This document shows positions 31,153-55,056 of a DNA stretch of 64,000 bases, piece after piece (position 1 is the first letter of the stretch; every line of letters begins with the position of its first letter). The translations under genes and the position numbers were made by a program. This DNA comes from an uncultured Bacilli bacterium (GTDB lineage: Bacteria > Bacillota_I > Bacilli_A > RF39 > UBA660). The stretch spans positions 349 through 64,348 of the forward strand of contig CAKOJQ010000004.1 in assembly GCA_934090795.1 (NCBI GenBank), given 5' to 3'. The notes under the pieces are model-generated. The model did not search any database. It saw nothing but the letters and a program-made list of their open reading frames with translations, and had not been told where the DNA came from.

Positions 31153-32268
31153 ATGGCTGGAAATGTTAAGGTTTTAACAAATGATTTGATAAATGATGGC
31201 ATATATGTAAAAAATGTATGTGATAATATTAAGGATAATTATGATAATGTAAATAATGTTATTTCAGATGTTTGTTTGACACTTAACTATTATAAAGAAC
31301 AACTTAGTTTAAAGTTTGAAGTGTTTCAAGAACATTCTAATACATTTAATGATAAGATAAATAATTGTGCTTTAGATTTAGAAAAAATTGATAATTTAAT
31401 TGGCAGTAATGTTACTAATTTACTAGGGAATGCGGACAATTTTGAATTTGGTGATAACAACTATTATGAATTAAGTACTATCACTTTAAAAACAAATGAT
31501 GGAATAAATATTGATATTGGCAATTTAGCAGATTTACCTGATAATGAACGAAAGACAGTATTAAATAAATTTTATAAAGAACTTGGTACTGCTGTTGTTA
31601 ATATTGAGAATGGCAATTATACATATCCTGGAACTAGTGATAATGATTTAGTAAATAGTTTAGTTAGACAATATTATGATAGTATTGTTAAGATTGATGC
31701 AAGTGGAAATGTTATTTATGAATCTAATGATTTAACAAAAAATAATTTTTATAATAGTGTTGTTAAAAAATATGGCGAGATTGCTAATGTACAAATTACT
31801 CCTAAAGATCTTCACTATGCTAGCAGAAATGGTAATCCATTAATTAGAGAAAATATTCAAGAATATAATTTACAATTTGCTGTTCAACAAACACCTACGG
31901 AAATTGGGCAGGAATATGATTTTTGTAAATGGGGACTTGTTAATGGTGATGAAAAAACGAGTGATTATTCAAAGCAATTATATGAAGAGACTGGATCTTA
32001 TCAAAGAGTATACTCTTACTATCCTGATGATTCAAAACATATGTTTATAGATCAATTTTATCTTTGCGATGATGGAATCTATAGAGATAAAGATGGCTAT
32101 ATTATTTGTGCTGATAAATATAACTTGGGATATAATGAAGATGGTACTAGCCATTGGGTTGGTCAAATAAATAGCGAAAATGCAGTTATTGTTGATACTC
32201 CATTTGGATTTGGTAAGGTTTATGATTCTTGTGGTCAAGGTAATATAGATATATATACACATTTTTGA
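31153..32268 (+). CDS. T7SS-associated protein: helical LXG/WXG-like N-terminus + C-terminal 3D-domain-like (MltA/DPBB-type) signature
   Basis: The first ~100 aa form a predicted helical hairpin ending NLLGNAD. The C-terminus AVIVDTPFGFGKVYDSCGQGNIDIY resembles the three-Asp 3D domain. First gene of the T7SS-like locus. Confidence 0.4.
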   Translation: MAGNVKVLTNDLINDGIYVKNVCDNIKDNYDNVNNVISDVCLTLNYYKEQLSLKFEVFQEHSNTFNDKINNCALDLEKIDNLIGSNVTNLLGNADNFEFGDNNYYELSTITLKTNDGINIDIGNLADLPDNERKTVLNKFYKELGTAVVNIENGNYTYPGTSDNDLVNSLVRQYYDSIVKIDASGNVIYESNDLTKNNFYNSVVKKYGEIANVQITPKDLHYASRNGNPLIRENIQEYNLQFAVQQTPTEIGQEYDFCKWGLVNGDEKTSDYSKQLYEETGSYQRVYSYYPDDSKHMFIDQFYLCDDGIYRDKDGYIICADKYNLGYNEDGTSHWVGQINSENAVIVDTPFGFGKVYDSCGQGNIDIYTHF

Positions 32269-32283
32269 GAGGAGAAATAAAAT

Positions 32284-32793
32284 ATGAAGGATAAAATTGC
32301 AAATTATTATGAGAATGTTGATGATGCAGCTATAAAACAGGCTGTTGAAAATTTTAGAAGTGTTTTAAATGAAGTTAATTATGAAAACGGTGATGGTTTA
32401 CCATTAAATACTCAAGCAAAATATGATAGTACATTTAACAATGGTACTAATTACTTAAAAAATACTGACATATTAGGCATGGTTCAATTATGTAATTCTT
32501 GTTTAGGAGTTGTTAGCAAAATTACAACATACAAAACTTATTATAGTGGTACTTATACTAATACATATAATGATTGTAGTACCAAGTATAATACTTATAC
32601 TAATGCCCCAAAAACAATTACTAAAACTGATGTAAACGGAAATATAATATATAGAGACGGACAGCCTGTACTTATTGATAATCCGAAAGTTGCAACATAT
32701 AAATCTGAATATATTAGTGCGTTAACTACTTTGGGGAATTGTGAAAAATATTTAAATGATTTGAAAAATAGTATTGAGTCTGTTTCTATCTAA
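32284..32793 (+). CDS. Hypothetical protein of the T7SS-like locus
   Basis: 169 aa, no TM helix, T/Y/N-rich middle, no recognisable domain. RBS GAGGAG upstream. Confidence 0.5.
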   Translation: MKDKIANYYENVDDAAIKQAVENFRSVLNEVNYENGDGLPLNTQAKYDSTFNNGTNYLKNTDILGMVQLCNSCLGVVSKITTYKTYYSGTYTNTYNDCSTKYNTYTNAPKTITKTDVNGNIIYRDGQPVLIDNPKVATYKSEYISALTTLGNCEKYLNDLKNSIESVSI

Positions 32794-32898
32794 ATTGTTT
32801 ACATAAATTTTACAGATTTTATTTAATAATTATTTATTAAAATAAATTAATAGTGTAAAATAATAATTGATATACAATATATGTGGATGTGAGGTATC

Positions 32899-33153
32899 AT
32901 GAATAAATATTTAGTTACTGTAATCGTTCCTGTTATTAATTTGACATTTGATGTTGAAATTCCTAATAATAGAAAAATTGGGACGATTAAAAAAATTTTA
33001 TTAGCCGAGGTTAATAGTAAAGCTAGCGGAATGTATAATAAAAGTTTTAATGATATTAGAGTAATTGATAGAGATAATGGTACTGAATATAGTAATGATA
33101 TGTATATTAAAGATTCTAAAATAATAAATGGATCAAAATTAATTTTGATTTAA
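32899..33153 (+). CDS. esaB: YukD/EsaB-like ubiquitin-fold protein
   Basis: 84 aa. Beta-grasp pattern ending INGSKLILI, like YukD (ITNGDRLEIL). Directly upstream of WXG100 genes. Confidence 0.6.
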   Translation: MNKYLVTVIVPVINLTFDVEIPNNRKIGTIKKILLAEVNSKASGMYNKSFNDIRVIDRDNGTEYSNDMYIKDSKIINGSKLILI

Positions 33154-33170
33154 TAGAAAGGAAAGAAGAA

Positions 33171-33458
33171 ATGGCTGTATTAAATATTGATACTGAAGGA
33201 GTAAGAGATATTGCTTCTATGATTTCTAATCAAGCTGATGAATTAGAAACTGAAATTAAGAGAATCAAAGAAAATCAAGAAAAACTAAATTCTTGTTGGA
33301 CTGGAGAAGCTGCAACTGCTGCTCAAGTTGCTTTAGATGAAGTAGTTGCTTTATATAATGATATGTTAGCTACAGTAAGAAGTACACATACTTCACTTGC
33401 AAGTGCTGCAAATTCATTTAGTGATACTGATACATCTAATGCTGGAATGTTTAAATAA
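33171..33458 (+). CDS. esxA: WXG100-family protein (EsxA-like)
   Basis: 95 aa helical hairpin with a central W-T-G (NSCWTGEAA). Strong RBS. Confidence 0.8.
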   Translation: MAVLNIDTEGVRDIASMISNQADELETEIKRIKENQEKLNSCWTGEAATAAQVALDEVVALYNDMLATVRSTHTSLASAANSFSDTDTSNAGMFK

Positions 33459-33477
33459 TTAGAAAGGAAAAAATAAA

Positions 33478-33780
33478 ATGGGAAAAATTTATATAGATTA
33501 CGAACAAGCTTCAGAAGTTATTGGAAATATAAATAGTGTTGTTAATGAAGTACAATCAACATTAGAATCAATTTCTGGTCTTTATTCAAGAATTAATAGT
33601 GGAGACGTTTATAGTGGTTTTTCTGCTGGTGAATATGAAGCTCGTTTTAATGAATTAAAGAAAACTGCATTTGTTAAAGTTCCTGAAGCAACATCAAAAG
33701 TAAATAGACTTTTAGCTGAAGCTAGAAATCAATATGCTGAAAATGAACAAAAAGCTGCAAATGCTGCAAATGGAAATTAA
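33478..33780 (+). CDS. WXG100-like partner protein (no W-x-G)
   Basis: 100 aa helical hairpin. The turn reads VYSGFSAGEY. Adjacent to the esxA-like gene. Confidence 0.55.
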   Translation: MGKIYIDYEQASEVIGNINSVVNEVQSTLESISGLYSRINSGDVYSGFSAGEYEARFNELKKTAFVKVPEATSKVNRLLAEARNQYAENEQKAANAANGN

Positions 33781-33829
33781 AGCATTTAAATATGCTTTGA
33801 CTAAAGAACTATTTAATTAATAGTTTTTT
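33779..33829 (+). terminator. Tandem hairpins / leaky terminator after the first esx pair
   Basis: AAAGCAT-TTAAAT-ATGCTTT, then AACTATT-TAATT-AATAGTT followed by TTTT. Confidence 0.45.
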
Positions 33830-33864
33830 GGTGAAAATATATTTGAATAATTAGGGAGGATATT

Positions 33865-34152
33865 ATGAAAATTGAATATAATATAGATGATTTAAGACAA
33901 TATTCTGAAAAGTTATTAGCTGAACATGAATCAATGGTTGGAGCTGTTACAAATTTAGAAGGACTTGTTTCTAGTTTTCAGGCAAATTGGTCAGGAGAAG
34001 CCCAAACAGCCTATATTGCTTTTTTTACAGATGCTATTGCGTCTTTGAAATCTTATTTAGAAGAATTTGATATTATTGCTCAAAATTTAAATACTGCTGC
34101 TGATTATTATGAAAAACATGAGGAAACATATACAAATTGCTTAGGTTTTTAG
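33865..34152 (+). CDS. WXG100-family protein
   Basis: 95 aa with a central W-S-G (ANWSGEAQ). GGGAGG RBS. Confidence 0.75.
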   Translation: MKIEYNIDDLRQYSEKLLAEHESMVGAVTNLEGLVSSFQANWSGEAQTAYIAFFTDAIASLKSYLEEFDIIAQNLNTAADYYEKHEETYTNCLGF

Positions 34153-34162
34153 GAGAGATTTT

Positions 34163-35566
34163 ATGGCGAATATAAAAGTAAATTATAGTGGTATTGCAAG
34201 TGATATTTCTACGTTATCTTCTAATGTAAAAAATATTTGTGATTCTTTAGATAAAGTTAATAATGTCGAAAATGTTATACCTGAATCATGGAGAAGCAAT
34301 GGTGCTGAACAATATAGAAGTGCTGTTGTAACTGATATTATTGCTCCAATTGCAAATTTTGAAGGAACTCTTACAGGACTAATTAAAATGCTTTCTGAGG
34401 TATCAGATAACTTTGATAATCTAGAAAATATTATTGGTAGTGAATTAAATAACTGGTTTAATGGTATGGTAGCAAGTGGCAAGGTATTAGATTTAGTTGC
34501 TGTTAGAGATGTATTGTTAAACTATGGAATAAATTATTTAACACAAGATGATACTTATTCTTCTATTCCTTATGGATCTGGAAGTTTAAAATCTGATGGA
34601 TGTGGTTTTTTCTCTATGGTTATGGCTTATCAATTAAAATCTGGTCATAATTTGACAATGGATGAAATTAAAAAGTTAGCGTATGCGAGTAGTGTAAATG
34701 GTGCACCTGGTGGAAATTATGATTTATCTTATAATACTGGTGTTAATTTAGGCTTAGATGTTAATAAGACTAGATATTCATCAATTAATGATGTTTATAA
34801 TGCTGTTAATGATGGAAAATCTGTTATTTTCTTAAATCGTGGTTCAACTCATTTTAGATTAATAACTGAAGTTAAACATACCGATAATGGTGATGTTTAT
34901 GTTGTTTATGATTCTGTTAAGAAAGAGTATCAGACTTGGACTGCTGATCAAGTTGCTAGTGAAGTTGCCGTAGGTAATGTAATTGAAGTTGGAAAATATG
35001 ATAAAAGTAAGGATAATCTTCAAGATAGTTCTTGGAATCCTGGAAATGCACCTCTTTCAAGTGATAGTGTAGAACCTGGAAATAGTGGTGTACATAATCC
35101 AAGTGAACCAACAACTCCAAGTGAGCCAACAACTCCAAGTGAGCCGACAACTCCAAGCAAGCCAACAACTCCAAGTGAGCCAACAACTCCAAGTAGGCCA
35201 ACAACTCCAAGTGAGCCAACAACTCCAAGTAAGCCAACAACTCCAAGTGAGCCAACAACTCCAAGTGAGCCAGCTACTCCAAGTGAACCAACAACTCCAA
35301 GTGAACCGACAACTCCAAGTGAGCCAGCTACTCCAAGTGAGCCGACAACTCCAAGTGAGCCGACAACTCCAAGTGAGCCATCAACTCCAAGTGAGCCATC
35401 AACTCCAAGTGAGCCAGCTACTCCAAGTGACGGTGATTTTGTTGATCGTTTGGGTGATACATCATTAGATTTTGGGGACGATATTGGAACAAATGATGAA
35501 ATATATGATAATTTAGATTTATCATTTACTGATAAGGCTGGAGATACGACAATTCATTTTGAATAA
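34163..35566 (+). CDS. Putative T7SS substrate: WXG-like N-terminus + C39-like papain-fold domain + PSEPTT repeat linker + acidic tail
   Basis: N-terminal helical hairpin with SWRSNGAEQY. Cys/His/Asp candidates in DGCGFFSMVMAY, GSTHFRLI and VVYDS. 18 PSEPTT-type repeats. D/E-rich 45-aa C-terminus. Confidence 0.6.
   Translation: MANIKVNYSGIASDISTLSSNVKNICDSLDKVNNVENVIPESWRSNGAEQYRSAVVTDIIAPIANFEGTLTGLIKMLSEVSDNFDNLENIIGSELNNWFNGMVASGKVLDLVAVRDVLLNYGINYLTQDDTYSSIPYGSGSLKSDGCGFFSMVMAYQLKSGHNLTMDEIKKLAYASSVNGAPGGNYDLSYNTGVNLGLDVNKTRYSSINDVYNAVNDGKSVIFLNRGSTHFRLITEVKHTDNGDVYVVYDSVKKEYQTWTADQVASEVAVGNVIEVGKYDKSKDNLQDSSWNPGNAPLSSDSVEPGNSGVHNPSEPTTPSEPTTPSEPTTPSKPTTPSEPTTPSRPTTPSEPTTPSKPTTPSEPTTPSEPATPSEPTTPSEPTTPSEPATPSEPTTPSEPTTPSEPSTPSEPSTPSEPATPSDGDFVDRLGDTSLDFGDDIGTNDEIYDNLDLSFTDKAGDTTIHFE
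35099..35422 (+). repeat. 18-bp tandem repeat x18 (in-frame, encodes PS[EKR]P[TAS]T)
   Basis: CCAAGTGAGCCAACAACT units counted directly. Variation is mostly at codons 3 and 5. Confidence 0.95.
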
Positions 35567-35575
35567 TTATAATTA

Positions 35576-35605
35576 ATATGAAAGCTATTTAGTTTTCATA
35601 TTTTT
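35576..35605 (+). terminator. Rho-independent terminator candidate upstream of essC
   Basis: ATATGAAA/TTTCATAT 8-bp stem, 10-nt loop, TTTT. Confidence 0.55.
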
Positions 35606-35659
35606 CTTTATTTAAATCATTAATTATTGTATAATCTTATTAGTATAGGAGGATACATT

Positions 35660-38600
35660 ATGCGTCTAAATATTATAAAAAATAATTATATTAAAAACGT
35701 AATATTACCAGATGAACCAAGTGGTTCTTATTGGATTAATTCATTTGATATTAATGGTAATAAAAGAAATTTAATTCTTGTTGAAGCTTATAATGGTAAA
35801 TGGAAATTAGTTAGTAATAATAATGTATATTATATTGAAAATAATGTAATGAATCCTTATGCCTATTTAGAAATAAGTAGTTATTATCAAATTAAAAATG
35901 AATTAGATAAGGATACCTTTGTAATATATTGTTCTCCTGTTGTTGAAAAGTATAATTGTTATGAAATTAACAGTTATATATCTAATGGAATAAGCATTGG
36001 TAAATCTAATAATAATTTTATTAAATTTGTAAATGTAGATGATGTTGCTTGTTATATAAAAACAATTAATGATAAATTAATTTTAATAAACAATAATAGT
36101 AGCTATGGTGTTTATTTAAATAATTCAAGGGTATATAGTAGTTCCGAGGTGAAAATTGGAGATATTATTTTTATTAATGGATTACGTATAATTGTTAGTT
36201 CTAGTGCAGCTGGGCTAAATAATATTGTTTTATATGTAAATAATGTAGATAATAGTGATATTAGTGTAGGGGCTATGCCTCTTGGAATTGTTAATTCCAT
36301 TGCTGGTGATTATACAGAAGATAATAGTGATAATGTATATGATATTTATAATGAAAATGATTATTTTTATAAAAAGCCAAGGGTTGTTCCTAAACTAGAT
36401 ACTTTAAATATAAAAGTTGATGATCCTCCTGCAAAACAAGATGGAAAAGATAGTCCTTTATTACTAACTATTGGACCTATGATAACTATGTCAATGTCAT
36501 CTCTAATGATGGGATATAATACTTTAAGTAATGTTACAAACGGAACAACTACAATTGAAAAAGCAACACCTTCTTTAATTGTTTGTGGTGCAATGTTTGC
36601 TAGTATATTTATATGGCCTTTAATTACTAAATTTTATCAAAAGATTGATAATAAAATAAAAGAGAAAAAGAGACAAAATAAATATAGTAAATATATAGAT
36701 AGTAAAATAGAAGAAATTAGTAAAGCTAAAAATGAACAAGCTTCTATGCTTAAAATGCATTATTTTTCAAGTGAACAATCAGCTGATGTTATAATAAATA
36801 AAAGTAGTTTAATGTGGCAGAGAAGAATTAGTGATGATGATTATTTATCTATAACTTTAGGTATTGGTAGTTGTCCAATGAAAATTAATATTAATTATCC
36901 TGAAGAACATTTTACAATGGAGGAAGATAATCTTAGAAGTTTAGTTTTAAGATTAGGTCAAGAACCTAAAAATTTAGAAAATGTTCCAGTTCCCTATTCT
37001 TTAAAAGAACATTATATAAGTGGTGTTTTTGGAATGAATTATTTACATGATTATGTTAAAAGAATGTTAATTCAATTATTAGCGTTTCATAGTTATGATG
37101 ATTTAAAAATAGTTATTTTAACTGATGAAGAACATGAGAGTGAATGGTCTTTTGTTAAGTGTGCACCACACCTATTTAGTGACGATAAAAGTATTAGATT
37201 TTTTGCTTCATCAGCAGAAGAATATAAAGAAGTATGTTACTATTTAAAACGTGTATTTGATAGTAGAAAAGATAATACCAGTGATAAAACTGAGTTTAAT
37301 CAAGTTTATTTAATAATAACTGATAGTTTTAAAAAGATTAGGGATATTGATTTAATCGAAGATATTTTAAAGAATAAACGTTACGCTGGATTTAGTATTT
37401 TTATAATGGATAAAAAGATGACTAATTTCCCAGATCAATGTACTTCTTTTATTGATTTAAGTTTAATTACTAATGATAATAAGATTGGAGAAGTTAAAGA
37501 TAATCTAGATATTAATAGTGTTGTTAGATTTAATGTTGAACTTAATACAATTATTGATTATGAAAAATGTGTTAAAGTTTTAGCTAATACTCCAATTGAT
37601 ATTAAAAATGATGTAGAAGGAAAACTTCCTAATAAGATAAGCTTCTTGGAAATGTATGAAGTTGGTAAAGTTGAACAATTAAATTCAAATGTTAGATGGA
37701 TGAGCAATGATCCTGTTATGAGTTTATCTGCACCAGTTGGAATAGGAAAAAATGGAGAGTTTATTACGATCGACCTTCATGAAAAATATCATGGACCACA
37801 TGGTCTAATTGCTGGTATGACTGGTTCTGGTAAATCTGAATTTATTATTACATATATTTTATCAATGGCTTTAAATTATAGTCCTTATGAAGTACAATTT
37901 ATTTTAATTGACTATAAGGGTGGCGGACTTGCTGGAGCGTTTGAAAATAAGACTACTGGCGTAAAATTGCCTCATTTGATAGGTACAATTACTAACTTAG
38001 ATGCAAATGAGATTAAAAGAAGTTTAGCATCTATTGAGTCTGAATTAAAGAGAAGACAGGCTTTATTTAATAAAGCGAGAGAAATAAGCGGTGAAAGTAC
38101 AGTTGATATATATAAGTATCAAAAAATGTATAGACAAGGTGTTTTAAGTGAACCTGTTTCACATTTATTTATAATTTGTGATGAGTTTGCAGAACTTAAA
38201 AATCAACAACCTGAATTTATGGATCAACTTATTTCAACAGCTCGTATTGGACGTTCACTCGGTGTTCACTTAATTTTAGCAACTCAAAAACCAAGTGGTG
38301 TAGTAGATCCACAAATTTGGAGTAATACAAGATTTAGAGTTTGTTTAAGAGTTCAAGATAAATCGGATAGTAATGAGGTTATTAAAAAGCCTGATGCTGC
38401 CTTTTTGAAGCAAACTGGTAGATTTTATTTCCAAGTTGGTTATGATGAAGTATTTACTTTGGGACAAGCTGCTTATGCTGGTGGATCTTATGTTCCATCA
38501 GATACAATAAAGAAAGAAATTGATACTTCAGTAGATTTTTTAAACAATATTGGATATATTATCAAAAAGGTTGAAACTAAAAAGATTGTAAAGAATTTAG

Positions 38601-40291
38601 CTAAATCGCAAGGTGAGGAGTTATCAAATATAGTTAAATATTTATCTGATTTAGCAGTTAGTCAAAATATAGTTTGTAAACCATTATGGCTTGCTAAGAT
38701 CCCACCAATTATTTTAGTTGATTACTTAAAAGAAAAATACAAATTTAAAAAAGAAGATTATGTATTTAATCCGATTATTGGTGAATATGATGTACCAGCA
38801 ATGCAGGAGCAAAGAATACTTACTTTGCCACTAACTAAAAATGGTAATGCGCTTGTATATGGAGCAGCTGGTAGTGGTAAAGAAAACTTTATTTCAACAT
38901 TAATTTATTCAGCTATGGATTCATATAAATCAAATGAGGTTAATTTCTATGTTATTGATTTAGGTTCAGGATCTTTAAATATGTTTAAAAATTCAAATAT
39001 CGTTGGAGATATATTACAAGGAACAGATACTGATAAAGTTGAAAATTTATTTAAAATGATTAATGGTACTATTTTGGAAAGAAAGAGATTATTTTCACAA
39101 TATGGTGGTTCTTATAAGGAATTTATTCAAAATAGTAATGTTAAAGTTCCAAATATAGTTGTTATAATTAATAACTTTGAAAATTATGCTGAAACATTTA
39201 GTAAATATGATGATATATTAAATACAATTACGCGTGATTGCTATAAGTATGGAATTTATTTTCTAATAACAGTTAATACTCCAAATGGGGTCAAATATAA
39301 GTTAAAACAAAATTTTGCTCTTATTTATGCGCTTAATCAAAATAATGATGATGATTTTAGCTATATTATTAATGGAGTTAGAAAAAATTATCCAGCTAAG
39401 AATTTTGGTAGAGGGTTAATTAAAATTGATAATGTATATGAGTTTCAAACAGCAGTTGCAACAGATGGAAATATGAGTGATTTCATTAAAGAAAAGATTA
39501 CTTTATTTAATGCAGAAAATATTTATAAAGCTAAAAGTGTTCCTGTTTTACCAGATGAAGTTACTTCAGAAAATATTATAAAAGATGTTAAACATGATGA
39601 TGAACTAGTAGTAGGAATTAGTAAAGATAATTTAGCTAATGTTAAATATGACTTAGGTAGAAACTTAATTAATGTTATTAGTGGGCTTGATTTATCAACA
39701 TATGATAGTTTTATAAATGCATTTGTTAATCAAATAGTTTATAAACAAAATAGAAATTTAGTATTATTAAATGCAGATGAATATAATTTAAATAGTGATA
39801 TTAAAAAGTATTATCAATATGTTGATAGAGATTTTGATGCCTTTATAGAAAAATTTAATGAATATTTAAAAACACTAGTTGAAAATTATAAGAATTCTGA
39901 TTTTGATAAAAATATCTTAAGTAATATAAAGCCGATTTATTTTATGGTAACTGGAGTTGATGCTTTCTTGAATAAACTTAGTATTACTAATAAGAAATTA
40001 TTAGATGAAATATTTAAAAATTCTAGTACTTTAGGAATTGTTAATTTCGTTTTAGTTGATTCTGTAGATAAGATTAAAAAGATTGAAATGGAATCTTGGT
40101 ATAGAAGTTATGCTAATAAGAATTTTGGTATTTGGCTTGGTTCAGGAATTTCTGATCAATTCTCTATTAATGTTATTCAAAGAACACCTTATATGCGTGG
40201 TGAGGTTCCTAATAGTTTCTGTTTTGTTGTTAATAGAGGTAAAGCAGAGTATGTTAAATATGTTGAAAAATTTGATATTAATAGTAAGTAG
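35660..40291 (+). CDS. essC: T7SS FtsK/SpoIIIE-family ATPase EssC
   Basis: N-terminal tandem FHA-like region, two TM helices and three P-loop modules. D1 is intact (GMTGSGKSEF, ICDEFAEL), D2 reads GAAGSGKE and D3 is degenerate. ATG at 35660 follows GGAGG. Confidence 0.9.
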   Translation: MRLNIIKNNYIKNVILPDEPSGSYWINSFDINGNKRNLILVEAYNGKWKLVSNNNVYYIENNVMNPYAYLEISSYYQIKNELDKDTFVIYCSPVVEKYNCYEINSYISNGISIGKSNNNFIKFVNVDDVACYIKTINDKLILINNNSSYGVYLNNSRVYSSSEVKIGDIIFINGLRIIVSSSAAGLNNIVLYVNNVDNSDISVGAMPLGIVNSIAGDYTEDNSDNVYDIYNENDYFYKKPRVVPKLDTLNIKVDDPPAKQDGKDSPLLLTIGPMITMSMSSLMMGYNTLSNVTNGTTTIEKATPSLIVCGAMFASIFIWPLITKFYQKIDNKIKEKKRQNKYSKYIDSKIEEISKAKNEQASMLKMHYFSSEQSADVIINKSSLMWQRRISDDDYLSITLGIGSCPMKININYPEEHFTMEEDNLRSLVLRLGQEPKNLENVPVPYSLKEHYISGVFGMNYLHDYVKRMLIQLLAFHSYDDLKIVILTDEEHESEWSFVKCAPHLFSDDKSIRFFASSAEEYKEVCYYLKRVFDSRKDNTSDKTEFNQVYLIITDSFKKIRDIDLIEDILKNKRYAGFSIFIMDKKMTNFPDQCTSFIDLSLITNDNKIGEVKDNLDINSVVRFNVELNTIIDYEKCVKVLANTPIDIKNDVEGKLPNKISFLEMYEVGKVEQLNSNVRWMSNDPVMSLSAPVGIGKNGEFITIDLHEKYHGPHGLIAGMTGSGKSEFIITYILSMALNYSPYEVQFILIDYKGGGLAGAFENKTTGVKLPHLIGTITNLDANEIKRSLASIESELKRRQALFNKAREISGESTVDIYKYQKMYRQGVLSEPVSHLFIICDEFAELKNQQPEFMDQLISTARIGRSLGVHLILATQKPSGVVDPQIWSNTRFRVCLRVQDKSDSNEVIKKPDAAFLKQTGRFYFQVGYDEVFTLGQAAYAGGSYVPSDTIKKEIDTSVDFLNNIGYIIKKVETKKIVKNLAKSQGEELSNIVKYLSDLAVSQNIVCKPLWLAKIPPIILVDYLKEKYKFKKEDYVFNPIIGEYDVPAMQEQRILTLPLTKNGNALVYGAAGSGKENFISTLIYSAMDSYKSNEVNFYVIDLGSGSLNMFKNSNIVGDILQGTDTDKVENLFKMINGTILERKRLFSQYGGSYKEFIQNSNVKVPNIVVIINNFENYAETFSKYDDILNTITRDCYKYGIYFLITVNTPNGVKYKLKQNFALIYALNQNNDDDFSYIINGVRKNYPAKNFGRGLIKIDNVYEFQTAVATDGNMSDFIKEKITLFNAENIYKAKSVPVLPDEVTSENIIKDVKHDDELVVGISKDNLANVKYDLGRNLINVISGLDLSTYDSFINAFVNQIVYKQNRNLVLLNADEYNLNSDIKKYYQYVDRDFDAFIEKFNEYLKTLVENYKNSDFDKNILSNIKPIYFMVTGVDAFLNKLSITNKKLLDEIFKNSSTLGIVNFVLVDSVDKIKKIEMESWYRSYANKNFGIWLGSGISDQFSINVIQRTPYMRGEVPNSFCFVVNRGKAEYVKYVEKFDINSK

Positions 40292-40299
40292 GTGTTTTA

Positions 40300-41343
40300 A
40301 TGTATATAATTATTAAGAATGAAAATAGTAGGATTATTAATAATTTAACTGTTAATGTGTCAAAAACATTAGTTGGTGATTTTACTAGAGAAGATTTAGA
40401 TAGAGAATTGAACTTAATTAATTATGATAAAGCTATTGTTGATATTACTTCAATTAGAAATTATTATGATGATAATTATTTATATAAATTTTTAGAATTT
40501 TTTAGAAGTCCAAGTGATGTTATATTGTTACTTAATGATGGGTTTGTTGCTAATAGTAAACATTTCTTAAGTAAATTAATTAGTAAAGGATATTATAATT
40601 TTGCTACTACTGATAGTGCAGTTAATAGACTTTTAGAAAGAAATAATACGATTGATGATGTTAAAGAATATATGGATGGAAATGATTTTCTTAAAACAGA
40701 TAGTATTGTTTCAGGAATTGATAAAAATAAAAAGTTTGAGACTGATAAGTTAATTATAGGTATTGAAAATGGTTTTCCTCATTCAGGAGCAACAACTTTA
40801 ATGTATATGCTTGTTAAAGAGATAGGTAAGAGTAAAAAAGTTAAAGGTATAGAAATGATAAATAATGATTCTTTGTTTTTTAGAGATGATAGAATTATTT
40901 CTTGTGAATCTAGAATTCAATTTGAAACTATTGTTAAAACATTAAATGACATTGATGTTTATATTGTTGATTTAAATGGTTCTGATGTTAGGGAAATATG
41001 TAATAAGGTTATTTATCTAATTGAACCTGGAACTACAAAGATTAATAAAGTTGTAAAGGGTGATAGAGAAATTTATGAGATGCTTAAGAATTCTAATGTT
41101 GTTTTAAATAGAAGTAATATTAAAGATGAAGAAATGAAAACTTTTGAATATGAAACTAAGTTTAAAGTTGTAGGTAATGTTCCTAATTTAAATGAGAGGT
41201 TGGATTCTAATGATTCTTTAACTAAATTAGTTGATTATTTACTTGATAATAAAGAAAAATATGAAAAACTTTCTAAGGATGATGACAATATTAATAAAAA
41301 AGTAGGCTTGGTTGGATTCTTTAAGAATATATTTAAGAGATGA
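40300..41343 (+). CDS. Receiver-like + degenerate MinD/ParA-like protein with C-terminal amphipathic helix
   Basis: aa 1-105 alternates beta and alpha like a CheY fold. aa 150-300 follows the MinD/ParA layout (LIIGIENGFPHSGATT, DVYIVDLNG, VVLNRSN, VVGNVPNL), but the Walker A lysines are absent. Tail KKVGLVGFFKNIFKR. 8-nt gap after essC. Confidence 0.5.
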   Translation: MYIIIKNENSRIINNLTVNVSKTLVGDFTREDLDRELNLINYDKAIVDITSIRNYYDDNYLYKFLEFFRSPSDVILLLNDGFVANSKHFLSKLISKGYYNFATTDSAVNRLLERNNTIDDVKEYMDGNDFLKTDSIVSGIDKNKKFETDKLIIGIENGFPHSGATTLMYMLVKEIGKSKKVKGIEMINNDSLFFRDDRIISCESRIQFETIVKTLNDIDVYIVDLNGSDVREICNKVIYLIEPGTTKINKVVKGDREIYEMLKNSNVVLNRSNIKDEEMKTFEYETKFKVVGNVPNLNERLDSNDSLTKLVDYLLDNKEKYEKLSKDDDNINKKVGLVGFFKNIFKR

Positions 41344-41350
41344 TAAAAAA

Positions 41351-41383
41351 AAATTGCAATTCTTTATGAGTTGCAGTTTTTTT
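41351..41383 (+). terminator. Rho-independent terminator closing the T7SS-like locus
   Basis: AAATTGCAA/TTGCAGTTT stem, 11-nt loop, T-run. Confidence 0.55.
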
Positions 41384-41521: not shown

Positions 41522-43645
41522 TTATAAAGTAAAATTCCAAAATATTTTAATAGGTCTATTGTTATTTTCATCTTTTTTTCCTATTAGAATTTTTGATATA
41601 AATTCATCTATAATACGTCTATTTAATTTATCAATATGAGTATATTTTTCTAATATACTTTTTTCATTGATTTCATCATTTTTCTTTTCACTTAATTCAT
41701 ATATTTCCTTTTTAATTTCTTCAATTCTTAAATTAAAATTATCAATATCTTTTTGATATTTATTTTTTAACATAACAAATTCTGTAGTAGTAATTATTCC
41801 GTCAGCTTTATCATCATATAACATAGTAAAGCGGTCGCTTGTTTTATTCAACTTTTTTTCTATATCATTTTTTTCTTTTTCTAATATTTTCATATCTTTA
41901 TCATAATCAATACTAGACTTTTTTGATGAATAATTTTTTTCTAATTTTTCGAGATTATAATATTTTTCAATAATTTTATTTATTTCATTTAAAACTAATT
42001 CTTCAAGAACTTCGTATCTAATATAACTAGTATTATCACATTGAGTTCCGCCTGTTTTTCTGTGGTTTCTACAATGTAAATAAGGTTTCATAAAAGGATT
42101 CTTTCTTGGACCAGATTTGCAATTACTCTTTTGAAAAACTTTCCCACAAACAGCACAATATACTTTTCTACTGAAAATATGTACTTCGCCATTTTTACCA
42201 GGACGTGCTCTTGTATTTGATGTTGTTAAAATATCAACCTGATCAGTAATTAAAGAGTACAATTCACTATCAAGAGACAATGTTTTTTCTCTTAAATTAT
42301 CATATTTTTCAGTTATGATTTTAATATCATTATTTGTCAAACTATTATCTAATTCTTCTATTGCTCTATATACTTCATCATTTTTTCCTTTATCAACATC
42401 AAAGCTTTTAATATTTTCTTTAATAGCATTTATAAATTGTCTTGAATCTTTTCTTGCATTGTCCAAATCTATCTTTAACTTTCTGTCCGCAAATTTTTTT
42501 CTGACAATCTTAGAAATATCAGGATCTACAATTCTATCATGTGCACAAGCTATAATACTTTGCTCATTTTTAGGAATTTTTTTGTAACCCTTAATATTGT
42601 AAGCAATTTTTTCGGTCCTATGTTGTATCAAAATGCCGTCATAAGTTTCATCTAATAGGATCTTTCTTATTGTATCGGTATTCCAAAATTCTGCACCATT
42701 AGGAGCCATGCAACAAACAAATTTTAATCCTTGTAGTTTTTTATGCTTACTAGGTGTTGGTATCTTATTTTCATTAAGATATTGGCAAATTTTATAATAT
42801 CCATATCCATTAGCATACATAGAATATATTTCTCTTACAACTTTAGCAGCTTCTTCATCAATTACTAGATGATACATATCATCAGGATCTTCAATATAAC
42901 CATAAGGAGCAAAGGAACCGGTCCATTGTCCTGCGTCATTTTTGGCTCTTAAAGTTTTTTTAGTATTTATTGATTGTTCTTCAATTTTCCACTCATCTAC
43001 CATTGCAGTTATTTGACTTGATTTTTTATTACCTTTGTTGTAAGTATCAATATTATCTACAATACTTAAAAATCTAATATTCCATTCTATAAACTTTTTA
43101 TGTAAATATTTTTCTACGAATTCAATACTTCTTGCAAATCTAGCTTGAGTTTTACAAATATAAATATCTGTATTTCCAAGTTCACAGAACAAAAGTGTTT
43201 TGTTCCATTCTTCACGTGAACCATCACTTCCACTTATATCTTCTTCATAAAAAATACCGACAACCTCAATACCTTTGTCATTACAATATGATAATAACAT
43301 TAATAATTGATTTAAAATACTTTTACTAACATTGCCTTTTTCTCTATCTAAGTCCTCTTGAGATAATCTAACATATATTATTCCTCTTTTGCCGGGAATA
43401 TGTAAAGAACTAATTAATCCATTTTTTTTAAAACAATTAGGATTATTTTTTTTAGATACTTTTAATAAATCTCTTAAATAATCAGTCATATATTCTAAAT
43501 TATCTTCGGATAGCAATTTTTTTATTGTTTTAAATTCAGTTGTTTCTAAATAGTCATCTCCCGAAACATTATCAACTATATAGTCATTTGAACATACTGT
43601 ATTACTTAAATTACTACATACCACCTTTCTCTCATTTTTCAACAT
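41522..43645 (-). CDS. Large serine recombinase (integrase/excisionase of the element)
   Basis: Resolvase-type N-terminal domain (IIYVRLSQEDLD), recombinase domain, Cys-rich zinc ribbon (CAVCGK...CRNH...C) and a long coiled coil. ATG at 43645 follows AAAGGAAG. Confidence 0.9.
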   Translation of the reverse strand: MLKNERKVVCSNLSNTVCSNDYIVDNVSGDDYLETTEFKTIKKLLSEDNLEYMTDYLRDLLKVSKKNNPNCFKKNGLISSLHIPGKRGIIYVRLSQEDLDREKGNVSKSILNQLLMLLSYCNDKGIEVVGIFYEEDISGSDGSREEWNKTLLFCELGNTDIYICKTQARFARSIEFVEKYLHKKFIEWNIRFLSIVDNIDTYNKGNKKSSQITAMVDEWKIEEQSINTKKTLRAKNDAGQWTGSFAPYGYIEDPDDMYHLVIDEEAAKVVREIYSMYANGYGYYKICQYLNENKIPTPSKHKKLQGLKFVCCMAPNGAEFWNTDTIRKILLDETYDGILIQHRTEKIAYNIKGYKKIPKNEQSIIACAHDRIVDPDISKIVRKKFADRKLKIDLDNARKDSRQFINAIKENIKSFDVDKGKNDEVYRAIEELDNSLTNNDIKIITEKYDNLREKTLSLDSELYSLITDQVDILTTSNTRARPGKNGEVHIFSRKVYCAVCGKVFQKSNCKSGPRKNPFMKPYLHCRNHRKTGGTQCDNTSYIRYEVLEELVLNEINKIIEKYYNLEKLEKNYSSKKSSIDYDKDMKILEKEKNDIEKKLNKTSDRFTMLYDDKADGIITTTEFVMLKNKYQKDIDNFNLRIEEIKKEIYELSEKKNDEINEKSILEKYTHIDKLNRRIIDEFISKILIGKKDENNNRPIKIFWNFTL

Positions 43646-43689
43646 ATATCTTCCTTTCGTATATATTGAAAGCACTGTAATACAATCAA

Positions 43690-46560: not shown

Positions 46561-47697
46561 TTAAAATAAATTTTTCAATATGTAATAAATAACATTTGTT
46601 GCTATACTATTACCGGCTTGTTTAAATAGTTGTCTATTAGACATACCAGTACTTTTAGCTTTATAAAAATCATCATCTGAAAATCCCATAAATCGCCAAC
46701 TTTCAAGTGGACTAATTTTCTTAACAAAAAAATAATTATCTTTGTAGATAATCATTTTGCTTGTATCTTCAGTAGAGTTAGCGGTTAAGGTAGGACAATA
46801 CCCATTCATAGACCATAACCTTGCAGTCTGATTATATTTTGATGAAGTATCACGTCCACAATGATTTTTACCGTCAACAAATCTATATAAATTTATAATA
46901 TATTTTTTTCTTTTGTCTTTTAAATTCTGACATATCAATTTACTATTTTTAGAATAGTTTTTATTTTTAACAAATTTCTCTAAATCAAATTTTACTTTTT
47001 CTGATAATACCAAGTTAGGATCAATATCTTTTTCTAATAAATCTTTAAGTCTTAATTTAAGTTTTATTCTTTCTGGAAAATGATAGATATATTTACCTTT
47101 AATTGCAACTAGAAAATATCTTTCTCTATTTTGTGGTGTACCATAATCAAGTGCAGTTAAAACGTGATCGTATAATGAATAACCTAGATTTTCTAAATCT
47201 TGTTTAAAAAGACTTAAAGTCTTTCTCATTTTAGAATTAGTAATAGCAGCTACATTTTCAAATATAACAACCTTTGGTGGATTATCCATTTCTCTTATAA
47301 ATTGTATCATCTTCCAACCTAGAGATGACCTAGTATTACTATTAAAATCAAATCCGCGTCTTATACCAGCCATAGATATATCTTGACAAGGAAAGCCACC
47401 AATCCAAATGTCGCAGTAAGGAAGATCTTTACCATTTATTTTTGTAATATCCCCAAGATTATCTTTTTCAGTTTTATTATGAATAGCACAATAACTTTTT
47501 ACCGCCCATTTATCTATTTCACAAAAAAATATTGATTCATAATTATTAATAACACCATTATCTTTTAATCTCTTAAAAGCCATTTCAGGACTACCAATAC
47601 CAGAAAAGAAAGTACCAACTTTAACATTATCTTTATTTAACTTTATAACCGGATAATTAAAATTAAAAAGATTTATACTAGGATTGTTTATTCCCAT
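46561..47697 (-). CDS. dcm: DNA (cytosine-5)-methyltransferase, orphan
   Basis: Motif I FFSGIGS, IV GGFPCQDIS, VI IFENV, VIII QNRERYF, X GNSI. No adjacent endonuclease. Confidence 0.9.
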   Translation of the reverse strand: MGINNPSINLFNFNYPVIKLNKDNVKVGTFFSGIGSPEMAFKRLKDNGVINNYESIFFCEIDKWAVKSYCAIHNKTEKDNLGDITKINGKDLPYCDIWIGGFPCQDISMAGIRRGFDFNSNTRSSLGWKMIQFIREMDNPPKVVIFENVAAITNSKMRKTLSLFKQDLENLGYSLYDHVLTALDYGTPQNRERYFLVAIKGKYIYHFPERIKLKLRLKDLLEKDIDPNLVLSEKVKFDLEKFVKNKNYSKNSKLICQNLKDKRKKYIINLYRFVDGKNHCGRDTSSKYNQTARLWSMNGYCPTLTANSTEDTSKMIIYKDNYFFVKKISPLESWRFMGFSDDDFYKAKSTGMSNRQLFKQAGNSIATNVIYYILKNLF

Positions 47698-49378
47698 TAT
47701 CCTTTTTCTTTTTAGTAGGGTTAGCCCTTTTAGTAGGTGTAGTCTTTTTAGTTTCTTCCGGTTTAAATAATTCTTTTTCTATTCTAAAAGTGTCTAAATC
47801 AAAAAGTTCTAATTTTTGAAAGTCTGGATTATCAATTTTTATTTCATCAACAATTTTATATTTTATAGGATAATCACTTATTTGTTTTAATTTAGTTTTG
47901 ATAGGATCCATACGAGCTCTTAAAAATAATGCGTCGCCAACTTTAAAATTAATTAATTCATCAGTAGTAAGTAAATCTCTACCAGTTAAAGAAGTATCAC
48001 TTGATAAATTAAAATCAGCTTTGCCATATCTATTAGAAGATGATGTTCTAGTAGTTTTAATTGTATATTTTCCTAATCGGTTTGATATTTCTCTAGCAGT
48101 ATTATAATCATTTGTAAGAAGATAACATAAATTCATATTTGCTTTAATAGTAGTAGCTTGATCTCTATAATGTTCTTGGATCATTCCAAAATCTTGAACG
48201 ACACCATATATTCTAATTTTTCTGGACCTTGCAACTGTTAGTTTTTTTGATAATTCGTTGATATGTATAGTATTACAAAGTTCTTCCAAAATTAAATTAA
48301 CTCTAACATCTAATTCGCCATTAGGACTTTTTTGAGCTTCTTCTACTAAAGTCTGATAGACTTGATTCACAAATAAGCCACCTATAAAATGACGAGATAA
48401 CTTTTCATCAGGTACTACCAAAAATATTGCAGTTTTTTTCTTGCCAATATCACGCATATTAAAAGAAGTTTTACTTGTTATATAACTTATACCAGTATCG
48501 CCAAATACTTTTAATTTTGAAGCTAATATAGAGAAGATAGTAGCCCTTGTTTCCCCACGAGCAAAATTACCAGCAGAATACAAATTTTTAGCAGTATTAC
48601 CGAAAGGTCTATCATCAAAATATTTGTCTAATGAGTTTTGATCCCCATACTTTTTAGCACCGTGTTCTACTAACAAATTATAAATAGAATGAAAATGTAT
48701 TTGATTTTCATTTTTACAATCTTCAATTAAAGCAAGACATAAAGCACTTAATACAGAAGAAGATGATTCTTGCCAATACTTATCACGACTATTAACTTCT
48801 TCACATATTGCATTTGATAAGTCATTAACTGTTTCAATTTCTTTTTCAAAATTGTTTTCTTTATAATATTGATATGCTAAAGTAAGAGGATTCCAAAAAT
48901 CACTATTTTTAGTATCTCTTAAATTAATAATTTTAACATCATAATCTTTTTTCTTTAAATAATCATAAGTATATTTATATAATTCGCCCTTAACATCATT
49001 AATAATCATTGACTCATTACTATCAGCTAGATTAAAAATTAGTGGTAATATGACACTAACAGTTTTACCAGATCCAGTACTACCAACAATTAAGTTATGA
49101 TTAGAGCTTGTATCAATATAGTATTTATTATTTTCTATCGCAACAACCATACCACCTGATTTATTTTCTTTACCAAATTTCCAAGTAGTAAAGTTATCTT
49201 TAATTTCTTTTATACTAGCAAATTTACTACTACCAAATTCATTAGAACTTACACGTTCTGGAATACCATTAGTAGAGTGAGAGTTCTTAACCTTAAAATT
49301 ATATTTATAATAAGTTATAAGCAAAATGAAAAGGATCTCTAAAAGCAAGATCCCCATAATCATTTTTTTATCATTCAA
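47678..49378 (-). CDS. Type IV coupling protein (VirD4/TraG/TcpA-like)
   Basis: N-terminal TM helix and Walker A VGSTGSGKT in a large soluble NTPase domain. The frame is open a further 47 codons upstream (see findings). Confidence 0.8.
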   Translation of the reverse strand: MNDKKMIMGILLLEILFILLITYYKYNFKVKNSHSTNGIPERVSSNEFGSSKFASIKEIKDNFTTWKFGKENKSGGMVVAIENNKYYIDTSSNHNLIVGSTGSGKTVSVILPLIFNLADSNESMIINDVKGELYKYTYDYLKKKDYDVKIINLRDTKNSDFWNPLTLAYQYYKENNFEKEIETVNDLSNAICEEVNSRDKYWQESSSSVLSALCLALIEDCKNENQIHFHSIYNLLVEHGAKKYGDQNSLDKYFDDRPFGNTAKNLYSAGNFARGETRATIFSILASKLKVFGDTGISYITSKTSFNMRDIGKKKTAIFLVVPDEKLSRHFIGGLFVNQVYQTLVEEAQKSPNGELDVRVNLILEELCNTIHINELSKKLTVARSRKIRIYGVVQDFGMIQEHYRDQATTIKANMNLCYLLTNDYNTAREISNRLGKYTIKTTRTSSSNRYGKADFNLSSDTSLTGRDLLTTDELINFKVGDALFLRARMDPIKTKLKQISDYPIKYKIVDEIKIDNPDFQKLELFDLDTFRIEKELFKPEETKKTTPTKRANPTKKKKDNGNKQS

Positions 49379-52701: not shown

Positions 52702-55056
52702 TTATCTACCGCCACCTTTACCAAATAATTCTTTTTCTTCTGGTCTTAAATGGACGAAGATAGGTATTCGTTTGTCGTGAGTAATAACAAATAGTGCTTG
52801 ACCTTTACCCGCAGTTTGTAAAAATCTTCTTTCATTTTCACTTAATCTTAATACTTTTTGAAGTGAAATAATTTCTTCACTTCCTTGCGCCATAATAATT
52901 TGATAGTCAGAATTATCAACAATAACTTGACCGTACCTAACTACTTCTGGTGAAGTAAAGTCAATCATATTTTGAGTACACACAATTAAGCTACCATTAT
53001 ATTTACGAATCCTTTTAGAAGTTCTTTTTAAAAATTCTAGTCCGTCTTTATTTTCAGGATCAATTAATAAATGAGCTTCATCTACAATTAAAATAACTTG
53101 TTCGTCTCTATTCTGACTAATAATGTGCCAACACAAAGACAAGATATTAAAGAATTGAGTTCTTAATATAGTGTCATCACTATCAAGTAAAGTATGAATA
53201 TCAAATACTATAAAATCAGAATTTAAATCTAAATTAGAATAATTATTCCATAATTTACTATCAACACCGGTAGCCATTCTTCTAACAATAGCTTCTATTT
53301 TTTCTAAAGACTTAACGGTGTCATCATTAATTCTTTTATCATTTTTTGCATTTTCTAATTCGTTTTTTATTTCATTATGAAAATCAGTAATGATAGGATA
53401 ATCTTTTGAAGATAACTTACTAACATCAGTATCTAAATCTATGTTTTTCTTTTTATATGTTTTTAAAAGTAATTCTTCAATTTTAGTAAGTTCTAATTCT
53501 GTTAAGTCTTTAAAATAATATTTTATAAAAGTTCTAAATGTTTGTAAGTGTTTTATTACAGCAACATTATTATCTTCATCATTAGCAGAATTTTTAATTT
53601 CTAGTGGATTAATAACAAATCCCGATCCGCTACCACAGTCAATCCAATTCCCATTAAGAGTATTACATAAGTCTTTATATTCGCGTTCTGGATCTACACA
53701 CAAAATACGAGTTCGTTTTTTACCACCACCACGTGCAAAATTACCACGTAATAACTTTTTAATTAAAGTAGATTTACCACTACCACTTTTACCTATAATA
53801 CACATATTTGAGTTTGTTCTTTTGTTAGTTCTTTTCCACAAATCAAACAGTGTAAGACCGCCGTTTATGTCGTCGCCAAGTATTATAGAATTACCGTCAT
53901 CTTGTATAGATTCAAAGACAAAAGGGAATGAAGCAGCTACTGTCGTTGTAGGCATAGGTAGTCCAAAATTTTCTTGAAGTGGCATATCAAGAGTTGGTAA
54001 ACAAGTTTTTAAACCCTGTTCTTGCTCGAATATCAACTGTGATCCACGAAGATTTAAACTACTTAAAGCAGACTTTATTTCTTTTATTCTTTTTTGTAAT
54101 TCTTCTAAACTTTCAGCATAAGTAAAAAACACTACTGACATCAGTAGCATTTTTTCATTTTCACGATCCATTTTATTTGTTAGTTTCTCATAATCTTCTA
54201 ATTGATTTTTGAGTACTATTTGATCGTTTCTATCTTTAGAATTAATAAACTTACTTCTAGTTTCTGTCATTCCTTTTTTAAGAGTTTTATTAACTTCTAT
54301 ATTATCCATAGGATTAACAGAAATCATCATACGAGTATTTTTAATGTTAGATAACATACCTAACCAACTTCCCCTAGCATAAGAGGGGAAAGTGTCAATT
54401 ATAATACTTGTAGCATATATATCTCCAAGTAATATGTCTTTTTCATTAAACTTCATTGCAATAGGTGCAATTTTTTCTTTTAATGTTTTTAAACTACTGT
54501 CTTGTCTAAATACTTCAAGTGATGAAGTAGGATTAAGATAGACAAATAGTAATTCTTTTATTTCATCAGTTTTAGCTTGAGATGAAGATAGACCTATATT
54601 AGATAATTGAGATACAATATCATTTATTTTAGATTTTAACAATTTAACATTGTCTTTATCTTCATCAATTAATAAATAAAATTCACGATTGTTTACTAAA
54701 TTATTATTCATTATTGTATCAGCATATTTTATATCTTCTTCTAATAATTCTTTTTTAATTTTATCATCAGTATTTTTAGATAAATATAATAAGTTTTCTA
54801 TGTGCTCTGATAAACTAATCGGCTTATCAAGAGCAAGTATTTTAAAAGGATATTCTAAACTTAATAATACTTTTCTAAATTGAAATATTTTAGATGTTTG
54901 TTCTTCATTAGAATATAGTTGAAGATTAATGCTATTTACTTTTATAATACCAACAACTCTGTCATTATCAAGATATAATAAATCATTCCAAACTTCTTTA
55001 AAAGGCAACCATTCAAGAATAGATTTATCAATCTTTTTCTTTTTATTCTTATTCAA
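52702..55056 (-). CDS. VirB4/TcpF/PrgJ-like conjugation ATPase
   Basis: 784 aa. Walker A GKSGSGKST, Walker B ILIVDEAH. Confidence 0.85.
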   Translation of the reverse strand: MNKNKKKKIDKSILEWLPFKEVWNDLLYLDNDRVVGIIKVNSINLQLYSNEEQTSKIFQFRKVLLSLEYPFKILALDKPISLSEHIENLLYLSKNTDDKIKKELLEEDIKYADTIMNNNLVNNREFYLLIDEDKDNVKLLKSKINDIVSQLSNIGLSSSQAKTDEIKELLFVYLNPTSSLEVFRQDSSLKTLKEKIAPIAMKFNEKDILLGDIYATSIIIDTFPSYARGSWLGMLSNIKNTRMMISVNPMDNIEVNKTLKKGMTETRSKFINSKDRNDQIVLKNQLEDYEKLTNKMDRENEKMLLMSVVFFTYAESLEELQKRIKEIKSALSSLNLRGSQLIFEQEQGLKTCLPTLDMPLQENFGLPMPTTTVAASFPFVFESIQDDGNSIILGDDINGGLTLFDLWKRTNKRTNSNMCIIGKSGSGKSTLIKKLLRGNFARGGGKKRTRILCVDPEREYKDLCNTLNGNWIDCGSGSGFVINPLEIKNSANDEDNNVAVIKHLQTFRTFIKYYFKDLTELELTKIEELLLKTYKKKNIDLDTDVSKLSSKDYPIITDFHNEIKNELENAKNDKRINDDTVKSLEKIEAIVRRMATGVDSKLWNNYSNLDLNSDFIVFDIHTLLDSDDTILRTQFFNILSLCWHIISQNRDEQVILIVDEAHLLIDPENKDGLEFLKRTSKRIRKYNGSLIVCTQNMIDFTSPEVVRYGQVIVDNSDYQIIMAQGSEEIISLQKVLRLSENERRFLQTAGKGQALFVITHDKRIPIFVHLRPEEKELFGKGGGR

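Follow-up and report, generated by a model that had tools for sequence, protein, structure and literature searches.

A lysine-less TadZ-like protein encoded directly after essC in a minimal type VII secretion locus of an uncultured Bacilli bacterium

The positioning of secretion machines is a task of proteins such as TadZ/CpaE, BcsQ and VirC1. TadZ joins an atypical receiver domain to a ParA/MinD-like domain carrying the motif K/RGGxGxS/T (bioRxiv 10.64898/2026.07.08.737194), and VirC1 is a ParA-like ATPase that couples DNA transfer to a type IV secretion system (T4SS). For type VII secretion systems (T7SS), a TadZ-like receiver followed by a ParA/Soj-like P-loop domain is the build of TsfV, proposed as a component of T7SSf, and Tad loci have been seen beside T7SSg and T7SSh (Garrett, Higginson and Palmer 2024, PMC11217815). 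In ESX-1 the P-loop regulator EspI (Rv3876) binds ATP via Lys425 and down-regulates secretion. The case dealt with here is from a stretch of 64,000 nucleotides (‘the window’) of an uncultured Bacilli bacterium (contig CAKOJQ010000004.1 of assembly GCA_934090795.1, positions 349 to 64,348 of the forward strand), in which an open reading frame (ORF) of 347 codons, here termed X, follows essC, the gene for the FtsK-type ATPase of a T7SS. There is, in our estimate, an even chance that X is a non-enzymatic, membrane-associated scaffold that helps to assemble or position the EssC machine in the clade to which the window belongs. The initial annotation of the stretch knew of no T7SS component of this kind, a claim contradicted by both TsfV and EspI. 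The idea of a TadZ-like T7SS component is already known; new as variants of it are this family itself, the complete degeneracy of its P-loop, the tail of MinD type and the minimal-T7SS setting.

Operonic coupling of X to essC is real. The essC stop codon TAG (40289-40291) and the ATG of X at 40300 are 8 nt apart, as first annotated (coordinates and translation agree, and all the motifs cited for the protein are in their places), and the AGGTG ribosome-binding site of X, at 40290-40294, overlaps that stop. Directly 3′ of X is the sole strong hairpin detected by RNA folding (-17.3 kcal/mol, z = -5.06, equalled by 0 of 200 shuffles), and X is therefore the final gene of the essC-X transcript; this AT-rich structure was revealed by folding and missed by a consensus terminator scan. 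That X is a real gene is confirmed by its homologues (at least 127 at 90% clustering), its clusters (525 at 50% identity), its loci (at least 538 in GTDB species genomes) and its low ratio of nonsynonymous to synonymous substitution rates (dN/dS). A pseudogene or remnant is ruled out by that low ratio and by the intact ORF, membership of an adjoining integrative conjugative element (ICE) by opposite strand, a position past the recombinase end and conservation where the element is lacking, and a chromosome-partition ParA by the context of the family.

The AlphaFold2 (AF2) model of X, built from the family alignment, has two alpha/beta domains, a disordered linker and a low-confidence C-terminal helix. 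In a Foldseek comparison with the PDB, the predicted C-domain falls in the SIMIBI class, with MinD (4v02, E 3.7e-6) as best match and HypB-ATPase 5auq, FlhG 4rz2, FleN 8p53 and ParA 3ea0 as further matches at E values up to 6e-4; MeaB, UreG and Get3 are also among the matches. The N-domain modelled alone gives a predicted local distance difference test score (pLDDT) of 90.5 and a predicted template modelling score of 0.85. Its best PDB matches are the receiver domains of RcsB, NtrC4, RssB, NtrX and CheY, at the weak values of E 0.017-0.3 and TM 0.45-0.59, and the same list also mixes TIR, cobalamin-binding and other flavodoxin-like folds among its weak matches. The layout proposed at the outset, receiver-like plus degenerate MinD/ParA-like, accordingly stands by fold for the C-domain, whereas the N-domain is receiver-like yet weakly matched. 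Invariant N-domain residues in the family are K22, G26, D48 and Y99, with D48 at the end of strand 3 as judged from secondary structure; the domain is termed ‘atypical’ because it lacks the acidic pair that true receivers have after strand 1 and their lysine in strand 5. In the linker, residues 128-143 have pLDDT <50, and the family alignment has gaps of 20-70 residues there. Some members have other domain arrangements (P0134, P0150, P0161, P0173, P0178 and P0262), a number of them being 400-520 aa long with the domains parted by far longer inserts, and one family protein of 355 aa has the N-domain only, placed at its C-terminus.

The degenerate Walker A motif that the initial annotation had read in this one protein proves to be family-wide. 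At the Walker-lysine position (164), the 308 members compared have A in 236, S in 66, T in 6 and K in none, and at the position of the signature lysine they have T, F or S. The family P-loop consensus is xPH[AS]G[AS]T[TS], with G163 in 306 of the 308 and T165 in 301; these two, together with E185, D190, D224 and N226, make up a set of near-invariant pocket residues. With the pocket conserved yet lysine-less, ATP hydrolysis by X is unlikely. As to sequence-level relatives, Pfam and NCBIfam searches of X gave no match, nor did Pfam with all 39 aligned members (no receiver or TadZ match included) or searches of the PDB by sequence and by the 39-member profile. A profile search of 1.8 billion representatives stayed within the X family (525 matches) and did not reach ParA/MinD, hhalign of X against the window's own Soj gave a probability of 0.9%, and the TadZ structure 3FKQ was absent from the top 50 Foldseek matches of either model.

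MinD-like proteins bind membrane through an amphipathic C-terminal helix (PMC11407121), and the last residues of X, KKVGLVGFFKNIFKR, are a candidate for the same. Their hydrophobic moment, 0.64, is about 2 sd above the mean for the whole protein (0.35, sd 0.14), and of 80 relatives at least 44, from all types of context, have a tail of the G-Φ-F-x-Φ-F-K type. On these features of the sequence the tail probably docks the protein on the membrane. Composition and recurrence are consistent with the MinD-style tail of the initial annotation, though AF2, which predicts a helix there, does so at pLDDT <50.

Set beside the described systems, X resembles TadZ/CpaE in build: an atypical N-terminal domain, receiver-like in X by weak fold matches, is joined to a C-terminal ParA/MinD-fold domain, and in both proteins the classical GK[ST] lysine is absent. 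The ParA/MinD-type match of the X C-domain is at fold level only, with no connection by sequence profiles; of the TadZ motif K/RGGxGxS/T just G-x-T is kept in the FPHSGATT of X; and the MinD-type tail sets X apart. The tad-locus setting of TadZ/CpaE is shared by many relatives of X, whose genes have those for Flp/TadE-like pilins, a TadA/CpaF-type ATPase and CpaB-like proteins as neighbours, and not by the X of the window, which follows essC in a locus with no tad genes. TsfV has the same two-domain build and comes from a T7SS cluster in which WXG100 proteins, a YukD-like protein and an EssC-type ATPase with FHA are likewise encoded, with the domains of X comparable by fold only. InterPro and BLAST recognise TsfV as TadZ-like_ARD plus ParA family and do not recognise X, which makes close homology between the two unlikely; the T7SSf partners TsfF (a PPM phosphatase) and TsfJ (DUF6382-FHA) are absent from the window locus and from the related loci L081 and L091, and the hosts differ, Clostridia for TsfV and uncultured Bacilli for X. 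MinD and FlhG are the best structural matches and use an amphipathic C-terminal helix as membrane anchor, for which X has its candidate tail, but X has an extra N-terminal domain and, in place of MinD's deviant Walker A (xKGGxGK[ST], which includes the signature lysine), a P-loop from which both lysines are missing in 308 of 308 relatives; the neighbourhood of X has no min (minC/minE) or flagellar genes. VirC1 is likewise ParA/MinD-type, has a conjugation-gene context and acts in positioning at, or recruitment to, a secretion machine; about half of X relatives are in clusters containing VirB4 and a coupling protein. X differs in having no P-loop lysine, in being flanked by pilin-like genes and in its receiver-like domain and tail. 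EspI and X are both accessory proteins of P-loop NTPase type with genes inside a T7SS locus, but the P-loop of X has no lysine and the N-terminal regions are unlike.

X belongs to an unannotated family of uncultured gut Bacilli. Nearly all its records are titled as metagenome-assembled genomes of uncultured Bacilli, Tenericutes, Mollicutes or Erysipelotrichaceae, a few being labelled otherwise (Muribaculaceae, Clostridium, Phocaeicola), and sample or isolate names suggest human, rabbit, chicken and goat sources. A tblastn search of X against plasmids gave no match. Clustering of the neighbour genes of 80 X loci yielded a common module: an Flp-like protein of ~80 aa (MKEASxELSMTAIAVV...; 67/80), a TadE/DUF5411-like protein of ~150 aa (TadE-like in 69/80), X itself, and a protein of ~120 aa with a weak T4SS_pilin match (60/80). 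The module has two settings. One is Tad-like, with a SAF/RcpC-CpaB-like gene, a T2SSE ATPase (E 5e-28), two membrane proteins and DUF5411; a CpaF/PilC/DUF5411 system was predicted earlier in Clostridia (PMC9523054). The other resembles a conjugative T4SS, with TcpE-like and VirB4-like genes, an M23 plus lysozyme hydrolase and a coupling protein. A TadA-type ATPase is encoded in 26 of the 52 loci having enough upstream sequence, a VirB4-like gene in 22 of the 40 having enough downstream sequence, and both sets in L057, L058, L068 and L077. These gene surroundings lend independent support to the TadZ analogy drawn in the initial annotation. In the four loci with both sets, and also in L040, L021 and L008, the genes form one same-strand contiguous cluster with the pilin-X module between the Tad-like and T4SS-like genes, and T4SS-only clusters retain Flp/TadE-like genes without TadA within 10 kb. 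Cell-wall hydrolase genes (amidase, M23 plus lysozyme, LysM/lysozyme) are close to X in several contexts.

Linkage to essC was approached from both sides. From the side of X, essC is immediately 5′, with gaps of 7-11 nt, in the window and in eight further contigs (L001-L007 and L091); from the side of EssC, X comes directly after essC in five of five metagenomic EssC orthologues (≥56% identity) with downstream sequence, these having been retrieved with an alignment-based query where a single-sequence query gave no match. Only a single clade, made up of the window and 13 other contigs, has direct linkage (a 7-11-nt gap or a junction of overlap size). The coupling to essC first proposed for the window holds there; most relatives are not essC-syntenic. 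Within the essC-linked clade the dN/dS of X is 0.12-0.30, similar to that of essC. A different arrangement is found in the L013/L081 lineage, whose T7SS locus (X, LXG-like, YukD, ..., EssC) opens with X and lies elsewhere on the chromosome; this second, independent juxtaposition of X and T7SS in L081 supports a scaffolding role. (In L084/L085, a near relative of that first-gene copy, P0094, has after it FtsE-FtsX-PcsB-like (M23) genes and the gene of a large N_methyl pilin-like protein.) At least four genomes hold both an essC-linked and a pilin-linked copy of X.

The T7SS of the window is itself minimal (EssC, YukD-like, WXG100). EssC has FtsK_SpoIIIE, a weak FHA match and a hydrophobic segment at aa 314-336, the only membrane segment predicted among the proteins of the locus, and its translation probably begins at the ATG that lies 11 codons inside the ORF. 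Upstream of essC the cassette encodes two unannotated helical proteins, a YukD-like protein of 84 aa (32899-33153), three WXG100 proteins and a WXG-like/C39-like protein. The locus (31153-40291) has no gene for EssA, EssB or EsaA, nor for a kinase, a phosphatase or other partners of the described T7SSb-j subtypes. In the related cassettes of L081 and L091 there are LysM and lysozyme-like proteins instead.

From these elements the proposed role can be put together as follows. X would be a cytoplasmic protein of TadZ-like build, probably without ATP hydrolysis, and its short basic amphipathic tail would probably dock it on the membrane. Its typical relatives, encoded between Flp/TadE-like pilin genes within Tad-like pilus and/or conjugative-T4SS-like clusters, take the place and have the build of an organiser such as TadZ/CpaE or VirC1. 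In the clade of the window, the chromosomal X of the abgT-X-amidase locus closes a minimal T7SS operon as its final gene, with translational coupling, and would be co-expressed with EssC and probably act on it. What the analysis shows is the ORF, its conservation, the folds, the loss of the lysines and the patterns of synteny; a functional link between X and the T7SS is plausible, and membrane binding, absence of hydrolysis and any contact with EssC are what we infer. Several results weigh against such a role. Some 17 EssC homologues at ≤43% identity have no X in their flanks, and in L008, L009 and L011 (EssC 64%) X does not directly adjoin essC. Five X orthologues of 54-66% identity (L086-L090) are found at this very site (Soj-Spo0J-DUF951-AbgT-X-...-amidase-LytR) without any T7SS gene separating abgT from X. 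They are all intact and retain the P-loop motif and a basic hydrophobic C-terminal tail, and their sole close pair (L087/L090) has a dN/dS of 0.157, clear purifying selection. (More divergent pairs in which L086-L090 take part give 0.17-0.58, with dS near saturation.) Islands of several kinds, Wadjet-like and ICE among them, have inserted 3′ of X, which makes the locus a hotspot, and the essC-X adjacency could therefore stem from cassette insertion. On the modelling side, the fold matches of the N-domain are weak and the model of the tail is low in confidence. Given that most relatives are not essC-syntenic, that T7SS-less orthologues exist and that distant EssC proteins are without X, scaffolding of EssC stays an inference.

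The main rival makes the adjacency accidental: a resident X would serve another envelope machine (a pilus or T4SS elsewhere, or cell-wall enzymes), and a mobile T7SS cassette would have landed between X and its promoter, so that joint transcription would not mean a shared function. This is a real possibility, if an unlikely one. The intact, selected T7SS-less orthologues and the insertion hotspot just described speak for it, as does the pilin linkage seen in most of the family, and so does the history of the site. Trees were made separately for the two domains (window 40300-40680 and 40747-41343) across L001-L007 and L086-L091. By N-domain, all copies linked to a T7SS fall into a single clade, a grouping that counts in favour of the scaffold, and the T7SS-less copies are basal, for which a single gain of the T7SS upstream of an existing X is most parsimonious. 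By intergenic blastn, the abgT-X spacer of L087 is also in part colinear, over short stretches only, with the abgT-T7SS spacer, the promoter region, of L006. The simplest history is then a single capture of the cassette between promoter and pre-existing X, though the T7SS-less state may alternatively have arisen by deletion of the cassette. The C-domain tree is incongruent, since L086 and L087/L090, though basal by N-domain, there group with L005/L006; P0058 and P0045 have an identical C-domain stretch with different N-domains, and with the tree conflict this points to domain-level recombination within the family. What accident explains poorly is preservation of the 7-11-nt junction over dS of about 0.2 to >2 with no remnant promoter or terminator, and the independent juxtaposition at the other chromosomal site in L081. 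Also relevant are the essC genes of L008, L009 and L011, which abut a cluster holding a pilin-linked X ~7 kb off, the recurrence of TadZ-like and Tad genes at published T7SS loci, and the genomes with a separate pilin-linked paralogue, which suggest subfunctionalisation.

Two other roles within the T7SS need to be set against a scaffold. With so many pocket residues near-invariant despite the loss of lysine, and with EspI as precedent, X could be a nucleotide-sensing regulator, its pocket still able to bind ATP or some other nucleotide and to gate the activity of EssC. Since EspI requires its Walker lysine, Lys425, and X has neither the P-loop and signature lysines, in any of the relatives compared, nor the TadZ motif, we regard this as very improbable. 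A substrate-targeting adaptor or chaperone for WXG/LXG effectors, with no part in scaffolding the machine, would suit a protein encoded in an effector-rich locus; it is extremely improbable, in that the fold does not resemble those of known chaperones or targeting factors of T7SS, the effector genes differ between species where X is constant, and the family is chiefly linked to pilus and T4SS genes. A broader proposal, quite unlikely as matters stand, extends the scaffold to the whole family: a lysine-less TadZ-like ‘hub’, employed interchangeably in the assembly or positioning of three ATPase-driven envelope machines of reduced-genome gut Bacilli (Tad-like pilus, conjugative-type T4SS and T7SS), which in the minimal T7SS would take the role of cytoplasmic EssC partner that the pseudokinase EssB has in T7SSb.

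If X works with EssC, it would be a second, sequence-unrelated TadZ-type organiser recruited to type VII secretion after the predicted TsfV, and would hint at how a stripped-down T7SS assembles without EssA, EssB and EsaA. Apart from the T7SS, the family marks composite pilus/T4SS clusters in abundant uncultured gut Bacilli, and X is a clean natural case of a MinD/ParA fold minus both catalytic lysines with the rest of the pocket kept. Coordinates of the features are collected in Table 1.

Table 1. Features of the essC-X region, in positions of the window
Feature	Coordinates	Strand	Basis
ORF X, 347 aa, TadZ-like pseudo-NTPase	40300..41343	+	translation, family conservation, AF2 mean pLDDT 80
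N-terminal domain (aa 1-127), flavodoxin/receiver-like fold, ‘atypical’	40300..40680	+	AF2, Foldseek
Flexible interdomain linker (aa 128-149), length varies in family	40681..40746	+	pLDDT, alignment
C-terminal SIMIBI-class (MinD/ParA-like) domain, aa 150-315	40747..41244	+	Foldseek vs PDB
Degenerate P-loop NGFPHSGATT (aa 157-166), both MinD lysines gone	40768..40797	+	308 relatives
Basic amphipathic tail KKVGLVGFFKNIFKR, candidate membrane-targeting helix	41296..41340	+	hydrophobic moment, recurrence
essC-X junction: stop TAG, AGGTG ribosome-binding site, 8-nt gap	40286..40299	+	sequence
Intrinsic-terminator hairpin: A-tract, 16-bp stem, U-tract	41347..41383	+	RNA folding
essC, T7SS FtsK-type ATPase	35627..40291	+	TIGR03928, 952 bits (cut-off 778)
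Remaining T7SS cassette	31153..35566	+	Pfam, NCBIfam

Some features of the surrounding genes may be added. The WXG-like/C39-like protein of the cassette (467 aa, 34163-35566) has ~20 tandem Pro/Thr-rich hexapeptides, TPSEPT/TPSKPT, at about 35085-35468, a region that gives rise to spurious long ORFs, both in other reading frames and on the complementary strand. Downstream of X, a 13-codon stub, MAKKVVIDSGHGR*, at 41466-41507 matches the beginning of the Amidase_3/LysM gene found after X in L002, L005, L089 and L090; the other half of this interrupted gene was not found within the window. The stub is followed by a large serine recombinase (41522-43675, minus strand) and, beyond it on the minus strand to at least ~63600, by a methyltransferase, a coupling protein (47678-49378), a relaxase-like ORF, a VirB4-like gene (52702-55056) and a VirB6-like gene. 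The whole looks like an ICE inserted into the amidase gene, and the ICE-like region is without any copy of X. Between X and the amidase gene, L001 (6017-13967) and L086 (11345-19283), from two species, have a four-gene DUF2397/DUF2398/SbcC-like/DUF2399 block, similar in composition to a defence system of the Wadjet type, and at the same site there are restriction-like genes and a serine recombinase in L006, and an ABC transporter and an M13 peptidase in L087.

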